DNA of 64,000 nucleotides from a plasmid. Location: NCBI RefSeq assembly GCF_058153355.1, contig NZ_JBLWLY010000002.1; one strand, 5' to 3'. Position numbers: made by a program. This document shows, piece by piece, positions 12,001-18,000 of this stretch (within the stretch, counting starts at the first letter, position 1; every line of letters begins with the position of its first letter).

Positions 12001-15000
12001 GATATTCCCGGCGTTGCGCCACTTATTGCGACGACAGCGGTGGCCACCATGGGGGAAGCATCAGCGTTTAAATCAGGGCGAGAGTTTGCCGCATATGTCG
12101 GTCTGGTTCCAAAACAAACCGGCTCCGGAGGTAAAGTTCGCCTGCTGGGGATAAGCAAACGTGGTGACACTTATCTCAGGACATTATTTATCCACGGAGC
12201 AAGAGCGGTGGCATTAGTAGCTAAAGAGCTTGGCCCGTGGATAACCGAACTGAAAAAACGTCGTCCGGCCAGTGTGACAATCGTCGCCATGGCAAACAAG
12301 CTGGCACGAACAGTATGGGCGATAACCGCCCATAGCCGTAAGTATGACAGGAACCATGGTAAGCGGCTCGCCAGAACCGTATTGATATTTACTGAGAGCT
12401 CAGATCAACTTTCCAGGGCAACAGATCGCGTACCCGGTTTGCCGGCCAGTCCTGGATATGCTCAATGACGTAACGCAGCCATTTTTCTGGCCCCACATTG
12501 TTCAGACGGCATGTGCCGATCAGCGAGTACAACACCGCCGCATGTTCGCCACCGCTGTCGGAACCTGCGAGTCGAGTCAGCCGGAGAGAATTTCACTCCC
12601 CGGCTGCTCACGGAACCGTACGTGACACTCTCGCGTCATACGGCTCTTGATCACTCATTTGATGCACGTAGTAAATACCAGTGAACAAATAGCTTCGGAT
12701 ACTCCTTCCTTACCAGCGTCAGCTTTCGCTGAGCCTTCCGGTTCGAAAGTCTGTATTTAGACTGCATCCACTTGAGCAGACGTGACTGCATTGCACTCCA
12801 CAGTCGATAGTTGAAATTTCTGGACCAGAACTTTCCGTAGTACTCGATCCAGCCTCTCACTATCGCATTGTAGCGCCTCGCAAAATCCAGCAAACTCTCA
12901 GCTGTTGAGCGATGTATACGCCACTTCTTGATTGTTTCTGTTATTTTGCGCATTGCTGCATTTGACGCACCCGGCATGCATTTTCGGTACAGTTCGCCTT
13001 TGAAATTCTTCAGCGTACGCACTTTGAAGTCATATCCGAGAAAGGTGAAACTCGTTGCGACGTTTCTCCTTTTAAACGTGTCAATGTAGGCGATATTCGT
13101 TTTCCCTGCATTCAGGACCAGCCCGACTTCCGAGAAGCGCTCCGATAACCTGTTCTTCAGCCTTGTTGCATCACTCATTCGTGAACAATGTACTACAATA
13201 TCGTCAGCGTACCTCTCAAACGGTACCCCCCGATATTCTCTTTCCATCCACAAATCAAATGCATAGTGAAGGAACAAGTTAGCAAGTAGTGGACTAATGA
13301 CCCCGCCCTGCGGAGTGCCTCGTGTTCGGGTTATTAATTCTCCATTTTCACAACTCTGCATTGGCGCTTCCATCCAGCGTCGACAGTACAGGATGACCCA
13401 TTTAGGCATCCCGTGGTGTTCCAGAGCTTTGAGCACCAGATCATGTCTCACATGGTCGAAAAACGCACTGATGTCCACTTCCAGTATCCAGCTATAACGC
13501 CAGCACCGGATGGCACATTGTTTCAGAGCGTCATGAGCTGATTTGCCTGGTCGGTAACCATATGAATCAGCATGGAAAATCGGGTCAAGCTTTTCTTCCA
13601 TGAAAAGTTTTATCGCTCCCTGAGCAATTCGATCGGATACTGTTGGGATCCCCAGAATGCGTTCCTTGCCATTCGACTTCGGGATCCGTTTTTCCAGCAC
13701 TGGTGGCGGAAACCATGTTCCCGAACATAGCCGGTTCCAGATCTTGTATAGATTGCCATCACGTTGCTGGTCGAACATTTTCAAAGTCTGCCCGTCGCAT
13801 CCGGGGGCTCCCTTGTTGCGACGCACATCCAGATATGATGCCCAGACCAGTGCTTTTGGTATTTCAAATGATTTTCGTTGCATCAGTTACGTCATCCCCT
13901 TTTGGGTTGTGTCTTCTGCAATGAATGTGATCCCCATCCCTTCGCTCCAGACCCATTACAGATCTTTCATCACTACTACGAATGGGTCCGCCCCTGTTTC
14001 CCGATACGTGCCGGAAACAGGTTCTCACGTTCCCTGAGATGGTCTGGCCCGGGATCCTGCTGCCTTCACACCGGATGCCGCGCAGTCAGTAAGCAGGTGT
14101 CTTCTGCGCTTATCAGGGGACGGCTGTACGGCCCCATTTTGACATCATCTAAGATTTCGATGCTTCATCGGACAGTTTACTTTCGTTCAGCTTCCCGAAC
14201 CCCACGTGACAGTAGATCTCTGCCTTTTCCCGAGTCGCTCACCACCTCATTCCTTAGAATGAAGCAGCACCGGGTCGTTTGGTCAGTGCTCCTGTAAACC
14301 CTGACCGGAGGGCCCACCTCCACCCACCTCAGAGCATGGATAACTTATGCTGCAATTTTCACATTGTTGCCATAAGTACTCCTTCGTGACACACAGAGCC
14401 AGTTTTTCCGGCCTACGGCCACTCCCCGTAAGGCGTTCTCTGCGATGTTGTTGTCGATTTCCACCCAGCCATTACTGCAGTACACGTTCAGTGCATCCCA
14501 CTGTTTCAGCAGGTATGCGAACGCTTTTGCCGTGTCCGAGTGACGCGACAGTGTTTTCATCTGTTGCTGTATCCAGTCATACAGTGACTGCATCAGTGGC
14601 GCGGCTCTGGCTTTTCTTGCCGCCAGACGCTGTTCTGCTGAACAGCCCCGGACCTCTGCCTCGATGGCATACAGTTCACCGATACGCTGCAGGGCTTCCG
14701 TGGTGATGTCGGTGGGCACTCTTGCATGCACATCGTGGATTTTTCTCCGGGCATGAGCCATACATGCGGCTTCCGTTATTCTGCCGGATTCGTACAACGC
14801 CCGGTAACCACCGTAAGCATCGGCCTGAAGCACTCCGCTGTAACCGGCCAGATGATTCTGTGGATGGATACCTTTCCGGTCCGGGCTGTACGCGAACCAG
14901 ACCGCCGGAGGCATTTCCGAACCGGCGTTACGGTCATCACGAACGTAGACCCACAGCCGGGCAGTCCTTGTTTTACCGCTGCCCGGCTCCTGGACCGGAA

Positions 15001-18000
15001 CGGGGATATCATCGGCATGGACTTTACCGGGCATCAGCACATACTGGCGCAGGATGTCATACAGCGGTTCCAGCAGTTCAGCAACAGCACCTGTCCAGCG
15101 CCCCAGTGTGGCACGGCTCAGCTCCACGCCCTGACGACGGTATATTTCTGACTGGCGGTATAACGGCAGATGGTCTGCATATTTTCCAGCGACAACATGG
15201 GCCAGAAGCCCCGCTCCGGCATAACTGCGTGCAATGGGTTTTGAAGGCACCGGAGCCTGCACGATATGGTCGCACCGGCAACAGGCCAGTTTCGGACGTT
15301 GTGTTTCGATAACCTTAAAGGCGCTGCTGATAAGCTCCAGTTGCTCTGACACATCACATCCCAGAGAACTGAGTTCGCCACCACAGGCCGGGCAGCATTC
15401 CTCTTCCGGACGGATGACCCGGGTTTCACGGGGAAGTGAGGCAGGTAACGGTTTACGGGCTGAAGACTGGCGCAGGGGAGATGGCAGTACCGGGTCATAT
15501 TGCTCACCCAGCGTTTCCGCCATTTCTTCCTGAAGAGCGCTGATTCGCTCCTGTGCTTCCTGTATCTGCCGTTCGGTTTTTGCACGAAGTTTTTCTGAGC
15601 TTTTACCGAACTGCATGCGCTGCAGTTTTGCAACCAGCGCCTTCAGCCGGTTGATTTCGGAAGCATAAGCCGCCACCCGCTGTGAGAGCAGGCGGTTGTA
15701 TTTCGCCATCTGGCGGATGGTGTCCTGTTGCGTCTGCAACAGTGCCCGCAGGCGGGCATTCTCATGAGCAAGTGAGGTGTCCATATCCTCACTTTACAAC
15801 GGGTTATATGCGGATGCCAGCGCGTTCCGTTCGTTTCGGGTGTTTCCAGTCGATGCCCTCAAGAAGCATGGATAACTGGGCCGGAGTAAGGTGCACCTTG
15901 CCGTCACGGGTGACCGGCCAGACGAAGCGGCCCCGCTCCAGGCGTCTGGTGAAGAGGCACAGTCCGTCACTGTCAGCCCACAACACTTTTATCTGGTCAC
16001 CCCGGCGTCCGCGGAAGATGAACAGATGCCCGGAGAACGGGTCATCCTTCAGGACGTTCTGAACTTTTGAGGCCAGGCCGTTAAAGCCATTTCGCATATC
16101 GGTGATACCTGCAACCAGCCAGATACGCGAACCTGCAGGGAAAGATATCATCAGTGGCTACTCCCTTTTATTTCGCGGATAAGTATCTGTAATAACGCCA
16201 GCGTCAGTTTACCTTTAAGCCTGAGAGTTCCGGCCGGCAGAACCAGCTCACAGCACAGACTGTCGGACGGTGTATTTATCTGCTCTGGTTCCTGTGCCGG
16301 AGCCGGGATTTTATTATCCGGCTCCGGCGTTAACGTCACGGGAAGCAGTGCAGGCATATTTTTTCCGGAAGGCAGCAGGCCACCTTTCCGGTATTGATAG
16401 CGCCAGTTGAAGAGCAGGTTATCGTTGATTCCGTTTTCACGGGCGATCTGCGCCACACAGGCTCCGGGCTGCAGTGACTGCTCCACTAAGGCGATTTTAA
16501 ATTCATAAGGAAAATTAGGCCGCCGGGGACGTTTTTTTACCACCGGGAGTTTGGGCATAACGGTGCTTTCAGTAAGTACGACAGGTACTGTGGAGGCCCT
16601 TCCGTAAAGAAGGGCATCAAGTTCCTGCTCCGACATACCTGCGGGCAGAGGCCATGAAAGGCCAGCGTTGCGGAAGCGCACGAACATACCACAGACAGTT
16701 GATTTTGGTACGCCCAGGCGACGTCCGGCCACAACCCGTGGTAAATGTTCTTCGAAATGAAGGCGTAAAGCTTCAGTGATCCAGGATCTGGGGCGCAGTT
16801 CAAAAATGATGGACATTATTTTTGTGGAACCGGAGGTAACAGACCAGACGGTTTAAATGAGCCGGTTACACTTCTGTTGTATCCAGATACGCTAATCGGG
16901 CTGCTCAACTTGGCATAAAGCAATGACCCTTACCTACAGTATGGGATGATACAAAACTAAAACATGCGTTCCTTCAGACTCAGGTTAAGATGAAGAAACA
17001 TTCACTCCTGACTGGGCTACGGAACACCGGGAACTGCGTAATAAATGCGTGACGCTGCAGCTACTTTGGGAAGAATACTGTGAGCGTGATCCAGACGGTT
17101 TTTACAGCTATAACCATTACTGCCGGATGTACCGCGAATGGCACAAAACCACTTCACCATCAATGCGTCAGGTACATAAAGCTGGCGGAAAACTTTTCAT
17201 TGATTACTGTGGACCTACCGTTGACATTACCGCCCCTGATACCAGAGAAATAAGAACCGCTCAGATCATCGTATCATCGTAGCTGTTCTCGGGGGGATCT
17301 AGTTACACATGGGCAGAGGCCACTTGGTCTCAGCAGCTTGAAGACTGGGTGATGAGTCACATTCGCGGATTCCAGTGGTTGGGTGGCGTTCCTGAACTTG
17401 TTGTTCCGGGCCATCTGAGAAGCGCCACACCGAGTAGGCAGCCTGACGGCTGCGGCTTGTCATGGCCTGTGATTACCGTTATAAAAACAGACAATATCAT
17501 TGTCTTTCAGGCGGTTATATGGCCCGTTCAGCTAAACCACGCAAACGAAAACCTGCACCTCAAAGAAGCAAACTCCTCCGCTATGTCGTGAAACTTCACG
17601 AAGATGATTTTTTTGACGAAGAAGAAGCTGAGGTTCTGCGCTTTGATAATTTTGACGATGCCGTTGAGTGTTGCGCAGACCTGAATATTCCGTTCTTTGT
17701 GGATGCCGGAAACAAAAAACTGGTCTTCTGGTTTGTACGTGTTGATGACGAAGGGTATCCGGAAATTGCCCGCTGCACGGAGCGGGAATTTGCGACAATT
17801 CCTGCCGGTATCAGCGCCGACGGCATGTATTGCCCTGAATGCGGTACGGTTCACTGGCCGGATGGCGTTATTCCGCCTTTCTGATGCTTCCCCGTTTTGC
17901 CGATATTTTTCAGCAGGGAAACCGATGGCTTAACTGGCTGGAGAAGCAGCCGGTGCAGATGAGCCGCCTGGAACATTATGCCGGTCAGGATGAAATTGGC

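Follow-up and report, generated by a model that had tools for sequence, protein, structure and literature searches.

Can a transposase gene that is interrupted by 1824 nt still be regarded as a gene? This question is raised by a tnpC gene of the IS66 family on a plasmid (NCBI RefSeq assembly GCF_058153355.1, contig NZ_JBLWLY010000002.1). We analysed a stretch of 64,000 nucleotides of this contig, which we call the window; positions are counted from its first letter. An initial annotation had proposed that a group II intron splits tnpC at 12389-15784, that splicing would exactly restore the reading frame, and that the transposase is therefore splicing-dependent rather than simply dead. We find that the interrupting element is very probably a full-length, seemingly intact copy of the mobile intron E.c.I3, which occupies its cognate homing site in tnpC of an IS679/ISCro1-like insertion sequence (IS) on a pINV-type plasmid.

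Intron boundaries and the transposase frame that excision would restore

The intron is in sense orientation relative to tnpC. The host element, its genes and the intron are arranged as follows, where L003 denotes an E. coli plasmid with an uninterrupted ISCro1 copy.

12359-16869, minus strand: IS66-family element, ISCro1/IS679-like, 2687 bp plus the 1824-nt intron; collinear with ISCro1 in L003
16151-16816, minus strand: tnpA, IS66 accessory protein of 221 amino acids (aa); NF038385, 282 bits
15804-16151, minus strand: tnpB, IS66 accessory protein of 115 aa; NF033819, 128 bits; ATGA overlap with tnpA
14395-15784, minus strand: tnpC exon 1, 1390 nt (463 codons plus 1 base), ending ...AAC TGG CTC T
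12571-14394, minus strand: group II intron E.c.I3, 1824 nt, with 5′ GUGUG and 3′ ...GAC; bacterial class D, IIB-like; RF01999 and RF00029
12571-12648, minus strand: domains V and VI (D5/D6), with D5 at about 12613-12646; full-length RF00029 alignment
12389-12570, minus strand: tnpC exon 2, 182 nt including the stop codon, starting TC GCA GGT TCC

Two Rfam models match the intron. The model of domain I (D1), RF01999 (group-II-D1D4-2), aligns to 14205-14321 (91.9 bits, E=2.8e-18), and the D5/D6 model RF00029 aligns to 12571-12648 (57.1 bits against a gathering score of 40, E=1.8e-9). The latter alignment covers the full model, and its final position is the last base of the intron. A domain V helix with the catalytic AGC is present, within 1 nt of its previously proposed location (about 12614-12647), and in domain VI the branch-point A bulges from the helix at 12577, at a distance of 7 nt from the 3′ splice site.

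When the minus strand of 12389-15784 is read, exon 1 ends ...AAAAACTGGCTCT (...GGCCGGAAAAACTGGCTCT) at 14395, and the bases directly after it are GTGTGTCACG, so that the intron begins with GTGTG at 14394-14390. The intron ends ...GGCTGACTCGAC, or ...CTCGAC, with GAC at 12573-12571, and is followed by TCGCAGGTTCCGAC, where exon 2 opens with TCGCAGG at 12570. Both ends agree with the group II terminal consensus (5′ GUGYG, 3′ AY), and all of these boundaries are those given in the initial annotation. In the uninterrupted copy, positions 714-3200 correspond to 16869-14395 of the window and positions 3201-3412 to 12570-12359. Given that positions 3200 and 3201 are adjacent, the intron is a clean 1824-nt insertion with no target base gained, duplicated or lost. 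The splice boundary is fixed and cannot slide, because the first base is G in the intron and T in exon 2, and the last base is T in exon 1 and C in the intron.

We also considered whether the continuity of the open reading frame (ORF) over 1.8 kb might be a coincidence, or whether the insertion might be some other mobile element. Nothing was found in favour of this explanation. The two Rfam models are independent (E values on the order of 1e-18 and 1e-9), the encoded protein scores 394 bits with TIGR04416 against a cut-off of 300, the flanks are collinear to the base with the empty site, and the insertion is 99% identical to a catalogued intron. The Rfam matches, the collinearity with L003 and the TIGR04416 score refute the idea, and we give it virtually no weight. 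The ribozyme motifs, exact boundaries and intron identity are thus demonstrated.

Joining 14395-15784 to 12389-12570 gives a single ORF of 523 codons that reads ...GRKNWLF-AGSDSGGEHAAVLYSLIGTCRLNNV... (GRKNWLF/AGSDSGG, with the slash at the joint) and continues to the natural stop, as had been predicted. The spliced TnpC is identical to the L003 protein, an ISCro1 TnpC of the WP_110843859.1 type, at 516/523 positions (98.7%), and scores 477 bits with the IS66 transposase model NF033517. Uninterrupted tnpC genes support the inferred junction. In all 15 best records listed, a 382-nt sequence spanning the spliced junction aligns as a single piece over 100% of its length (98.2-98.4% identity), and 2441 E. 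coli records contain one place that covers at least 80% of it. For annotation, the split tnpC should count as one intron-containing gene and not as two pseudogene pieces. RefSeq annotation by PGAP (L001, L002) lists two "incomplete" pseudogene pieces and an ltrA gene, and additionally calls a hypothetical protein antisense to the 5′ region of the intron.

The host element was compared with the features of the IS66 family that we used to define it, namely a tnpA-tnpB-tnpC operon, terminal inverted repeats starting GTAA and an 8-bp target duplication. The three genes and both inverted repeats are present (GTAACCGGCTCATTT... and ...GGCGAGCCGCTTAC). The 8-bp flanks differ from each other (ACAGAAGT vs CATGGTTC), whereas the uninterrupted L003 copy has GTTTTAAA on both sides. 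The plasmid has many IS copies, and recombination between them probably created the present context of the IS at 12359-16869.

E.c.I3 and its relatives

The intron contains one long ORF, which is of full length given that its homologues have similar lengths: in a large protein collection, those with at least 99% coverage are mostly 409-438 aa long, with a few of up to 461 aa.

12651-13883, minus strand: intron-encoded protein (IEP), 410 aa, with reverse transcriptase (RT) and maturase (domain X) regions; Pfam RVT_1 at residues 67-285 and GIIM at 311-385; TIGR04416 equivalog

The motifs EVDISAFFD, GTPQGGVISP, YADD and RGWIEYY are retained. Pfam detects nothing beyond GIIM, and the IEP therefore has no DNA-binding or endonuclease domain. 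Its C-terminus, LTLVRKEYPKLFVHW, fits the class D motif LX3AX3PXLF[V/A]HW (PMC4615759) at all positions except one, where A is replaced by R.

Over 1824/1824 nt, the intron is 99.0% identical to positions 4007952-4009775 of NC_008253 (E. coli 536). This locus is E.c.I3-2b in Table S3 of Leclercq & Cordaux 2012 (PMC3522654), who assign a name to introns with more than 90% nucleotide identity to a reference copy, and the window intron falls within this limit. We take its assignment to bacterial class D from Table S2 of the same paper. According to the passage in which that paper cites Dai & Zimmerly 2002 (RNA 8:1294), E.c.I3 is "known to specifically target ... IS679", a target that the initial annotation missed together with the name of the intron. 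The window copy resides in such a tnpC, and L001, L002 and L023 carry the intron at this site too. The length of 1824 nt, the IS679/IS66-family tnpC host, the insertion point and the class are thus all shared with E.c.I3, and the arrangement is already known, having been described about twenty years ago. It can serve as a textbook example of a retroelement nested in a transposon. The points that are new are modest: an intact copy on a pINV-type plasmid, a mismatch in the pairing with the 5′ exon, and the fidelity of a whole intron clade to one TnpC codon.

Other known introns resemble this one to varying degrees. RmInt1, RmInt2 and Sr.md.I1 of Sinorhizobium (PMC4615759, PMC3035460) also have class D IEPs that lack an endonuclease (En-minus) and are about 410-419 aa long, a C-terminal ...PxLF(V/A)HW motif, IIB-like RNA and a home in IS transposase genes; Sr.md.I1 even sits in an ORF annotated as an IS66 transposase (PMC4615759). 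However, the Sinorhizobium introns belong to a different clade, and RmInt1 (in ISRm2011-2) and RmInt2 differ from E.c.I3 in target sequence and IS. The available experiments on mobility and splicing concern the Sinorhizobium introns and not E.c.I3. E.c.I4 is, like E.c.I3, a group II intron of E. coli and Shigella and occupies a fixed position in IS3-family transposases (IS629, IS911, ISEc16 and ISEc31; PMC3522654), but it belongs to class A (PMC3522654 Table S2), is about 2270 nt long and targets another IS family. A distant blastn search with D1 for other class D introns in E. coli genomes returned just E.c.I3 copies and short fragments.

To survey relatives, we collected contigs encoding RT homologues with 72-90% identity, and additionally scanned one genome per species with a pattern restricted to the 5′ end of the intron. 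The introns of L005-L021 and L024-L032, with RTs 70-85% identical to that of E.c.I3, come from Pseudomonas spp., Pectobacterium cacticida, Budvicia, Methylobacter, a betaproteobacterial metagenome-assembled genome and marine gammaproteobacteria, partly in the form of marine and other metagenome contigs. At 22/27 related loci, the intron follows ...AAC TGG YTN T in an IS66-type TnpC frame (...G-R/K-x-N-W-L/M). The 3′ exon is still IS66 in 11 of the 17 loci whose 3′ end is defined, and continues T(C/T) GCN GG or a close variant. Three further loci (L011, L026, L029) have the same site sequence, with an exon-1 open frame of just 17-53 aa that is too short to judge, and in L008 and L009 the 3′ exon has been replaced. 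The introns of L012 (2040-2062, 3883-3900) and L024 (12110-12140) lie at look-alike sites outside IS66 genes, AAAGTGGCTGC/TGGC and GAAGACTTGGCTAT/ respectively (slash, insertion point). These apparent ectopic insertions are candidates for retrotransposition.

As judged from these sites, the clade lands on the DNA that encodes the invariant TnpC motif NWLF/AG. In the literature we searched, which includes the published cases of E.c.I3 in IS679 and of Sr.md.I1, we found no statement of such clade-wide fidelity. In this way, an RNA-guided element would obtain a "universal" target: it recognizes codons that protein function holds constant.

We compared intron and host gene at nine loci where both exon 1 and the RT are encoded in long ORFs. 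Leaving aside L008/L010, whose RTs are identical, RT identity is 70-85%, whereas the TnpC proteins encoded by exon 1 are 29-61% identical, with the same pair again the exception (86%). The RT and TnpC distances are uncorrelated (Spearman -0.03), so there is no co-divergence, and L008 and L010 show one RT protein shared by two IS66 variants that are 86% identical. Given this disparity, the clade would move horizontally among deeply diverged IS66 members.

These observations invite a broader reading, in which E.c.I3 belongs to a widespread, young class D clade that targets one codon position of IS66-family transposases and acts across the family as a hyperparasite or brake, possibly leaving a low, splicing-gated supply of transposase. 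The conservation of the site is observed, while the role as brake or gate is a proposal only, and we consider the reading as a whole rather doubtful. It is equally tentative that the horizontal jumps which it assumes span Enterobacteriaceae, Pseudomonas, Methylobacter, Betaproteobacteria and marine Gammaproteobacteria. Regardless, one intron clade, one codon and many divergent IS66 transposases provide a system for asking whether introns restrain the spread of IS elements.

Recognition of the exons

The initial annotation had also expected pairing between exon-binding sites (EBS) of the intron and intron-binding sites (IBS) of the exons at this position. We propose the following elements.

14121-14127, minus strand: EBS1 (intron nt 268-274, ACAGCCG), terminal loop of the nt 260-279 hairpin
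14395-14401, minus strand: IBS1 (exon positions -7 to -1, UGGCUCU), pairing with the EBS1 loop; position -2 is a C.C mismatch
14151-14154, minus strand: proposed EBS2 (intron nt 241-244, UCUU), in an 11-nt asymmetric bulge of nt 238-248
14404-14407, minus strand: proposed IBS2 (exon positions -13 to -10, AAAA), complementary to the bulge UCUU, with -11 unpaired (C.A); tentative

The structural basis is a D1 consensus calculated with RNAalifold from eight homologous D1 sequences, which contains 112 base pairs, 44 of them with compensatory changes. Minimum free energy folds of the single D1 sequence disagreed between sub-ranges and were discarded. In the consensus, the bulge of nt 238-248 is unpaired and lies between two covarying helices. 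We assign EBS1 to A268-G274, pairing with -1 to -7, because the conserved loop GUAYAGCCR is complementary to the conserved exon sequence UGGCU. In the window copy, the EBS1 loop pairs with IBS1 at 6/7 positions and the EBS2 bulge with IBS2 at 3/4.

Two other candidates were rejected. As EBS1, GGGGCCG (nt 260-266) could form 7 bp with UGGCUCU, including 3 G.U pairs, but both the alignment and the consensus fold place it in the hairpin stem, as the 5′ strand, and its complementarity is lost in relatives. As EBS2, UUUCCG (nt 378-383) matches CGGAAA at -16 to -11 perfectly, but it is inside a perfect stem of the D2 hairpin, and about 1.4 chance matches are expected.

Variation among the copies is consistent with the proposed pairings. 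At nt 269 and exon position -2, the combination is G-C in E. coli 536, C-G in L002 and L023, U.G in six relatives and U-A in L024, and nt 271 and position -4 form A-U in L025. For EBS2 and IBS2, covariation is seen in L011 (UCGA:UCGA), L019 (UCCG:CGGA) and L006/L008 (UCUUG:YAAGA). A permutation test over 18 intron/exon combinations gave p=0.055 for EBS2 and p=0.066 for EBS1, values that are no lower because most EBS/IBS positions are invariant; the IBS2 of L024 was entered wrongly in this test, and with the right string, GAAGA, the observed score would be slightly higher. The complementary EBS1 loop and EBS2 bulge are candidates for the expected pairing, with a mismatch in each helix and p values of about 0.05-0.07.

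Of the 17 related loci whose 3′ end is defined, 15 have a U at position +1, which would be IBS3. We did not locate EBS3 in the intron; as a guess only, it might be a conserved AA of the internal loop that lies 3′ of the EBS arm. The two-nucleotide linker at -8/-9 that our assignment implies is also found in RmInt2, and natural targets of the Sinorhizobium class D introns tolerate an unpaired IBS2 position -11, as the window copy has.

The C.C mismatch distinguishes the window copy from other E.c.I3 copies. It combines C269 with CTCT, whereas E. coli 536 has G269 with CTCT and the plasmids L002 and L023 have C269 with CTGT. In a comparison of E.c.I3 copies (L001, L002, L023, L004), the combination of C269 (14126) with an exon C at -2 (14396) was common to the window and a Salmonella copy. 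It suggests that the intron reached, by homing or by recombination, an IS66 variant that is not its cognate target. Position -2 may be tolerant, since it is unpaired in about 40% of the distinct natural intron/exon combinations. As this mismatch is natural, the window copy could be used to test mismatch tolerance.

Mobility, transposase expression and plasmid context

To judge from its family, the intron would have arrived by retrohoming. A lariat ribonucleoprotein would recognize DNA through EBS1/IBS1 (-7 to -1), EBS2/IBS2 (about -13 to -10) and EBS3/IBS3 (the U at +1) and reverse-splice into one DNA strand, and cDNA synthesis would then be primed by the nascent lagging strand at a replication fork. 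We propose lagging-strand priming because the IEP lacks an endonuclease; for class D En-minus introns, a lagging-strand bias and EBS/IBS-guided reverse splicing have been described (PMC4615759). The target would be the DNA for the most conserved TnpC motif (G-R/K-x-N-W-L-F/A-G), and this choice would let one intron clade invade very different members of the IS66 family. The IS would serve the intron mainly as a harmless landing pad and vehicle.

What does this mean for the transposase? The claim that it is splicing-dependent is formally right, because TnpC can be obtained only from spliced RNA. The addition "rather than simply dead" probably overstates its activity, since the window copy has two mismatches and RmInt1 sets a discouraging precedent. 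RmInt1 interrupts the transposase of ISRm2011-2, and ligated exons amount to 0.07% in its host S. meliloti and to 0.016% in E. coli; its authors saw "little chance of transposase translation", with expression practically abolished and mobility kept (PMC3035460). We conclude that the IS is probably close to silenced and not normally expressed, because TnpC requires spliced mRNA and introns of this kind are expected to ligate exons only rarely. The mismatches in both exon-binding helices likewise argue for low levels of TnpC.

Alternatively, the intron might splice efficiently enough that IS66 transposition is splicing-gated yet functional, in which case the transposase would be conditional and not dead. 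The exact restoration of the frame, an IS whose other parts (tnpA, tnpB and both inverted repeats) are intact, the intact IEP and ribozyme motifs, and the persistence of the IS66-intron composite in many lineages would all fit. However, the mismatched helices and the RmInt1 figures speak against efficient splicing, and repeated homing explains the persistence equally well, given the RT shared by L008 and L010 and the absence of RT/TnpC co-divergence. We therefore consider a functional gate improbable.

The plasmid itself raises another possibility. Its ipaH, ospB, phoN2, icsP and ShET2 neighbours match pINV counterparts at 98-99%, and by this gene content the window is part of an IS-rich pINV-type (Shigella-type) virulence plasmid. 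On pWR100, 518 bp of exon 1 and the initial 36 nt of the intron are missing from the homologous copy, and its intron segment contains an indel. That copy is thus 5′-truncated, and the window carries the undeleted form. Full-length E.c.I3 has been reported from E. coli ED1a and 536, and the copies catalogued on Shigella virulence plasmids are fragments only (PMC3522654), in contrast to the window copy, a rare case in which a pINV-type plasmid carries E.c.I3 at full length and with its ORF open. The window also holds a remnant of a second copy.

5730-6062, plus strand: degenerate second copy, consisting of the last ~120 nt of E.c.I3 (D5/D6), tnpC exon 2 and the IS66 right end

This segment is 94.6% identical to 12358-12690 by blastn, has an RF00029 match at 5772-5849, and corresponds to the 120/122-bp "E.c.I3-tr3" of Shigella pINV plasmids (PMC3522654 Table S2). 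By eye, an IS3-family orfA/orfB pair (4231-5673, minus strand) lies upstream of it.

Accordingly, intron and IS could both be inactive relics that persist only because the plasmid carries them, comparable to the truncated E.c.I3 copies on Shigella pINV. The resemblance to these plasmids, the truncated pWR100 copy, the degraded fragment at 5730-6062, the lack of a target-site duplication around the IS and the C.C mismatch at -2 are all compatible with a fossil. Moreover, a search of the window for a free homing site, AAYTGGYTNTTYGC, allowing 1 mismatch, found none. By contrast, the window copy is of full length, its 410-aa ORF is uninterrupted and includes YADD and domain X, D5/D6 and the branch-point A are complete, the three IS ORFs are open, and no sequence change is demonstrably inactivating. 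On balance, we regard a fossil as unlikely, though a more serious contender than a functional splicing gate.

Several points weigh against our preferred interpretation of an intact mobile intron in a nearly silent IS. The mismatches (C.C at IBS1 -2, C.A at IBS2 -11) may be a handicap for splicing and may already have been one when the intron first homed, and our interpretation does not account for the C269/CTCT combination. EBS2 and EBS3 are assigned tentatively, in the case of EBS2 because of its weak statistical support (p of about 0.05-0.07). Given that no matching 8-bp target duplication is present, the composite may be a recombinant and not a fresh insertion. Among annotated copies from E. 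coli and Shigella, several no longer have an intact RT ORF: that of L002 contains an internal stop, and the pWR100 copy carries the indel and the 5′ truncation. The expectation of low splicing is extrapolated from RmInt1 to E.c.I3, and what we say of splicing, expression and mobility of the window copy is read from sequence alone.

Additional IS-derived pieces occur in the window. Short IS66-derived fragments at 45196-45345, 27158-27233 and 63074-63110 are 94-97% identical to parts of 12359-16869, and none of the three contains the homing site of the intron. A broken IS110-family transposase at 11305-12358 (plus strand), in three ORF pieces (11305-11493, 11499-11858 and 11938-12468), abuts the right inverted repeat of the IS66 element, and its last ORF reads into the IS66 end. 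At the left end, an IS21-type istA fragment (17049-17282, plus strand) was recognized by eye. Finally, 25610-25797 (minus strand) gives a strong match (161 bits) to the full Rfam model of AS-pc02, which is antisense to pHK01_099; this is an antisense RNA of IncF-type plasmids and is unrelated to the intron.

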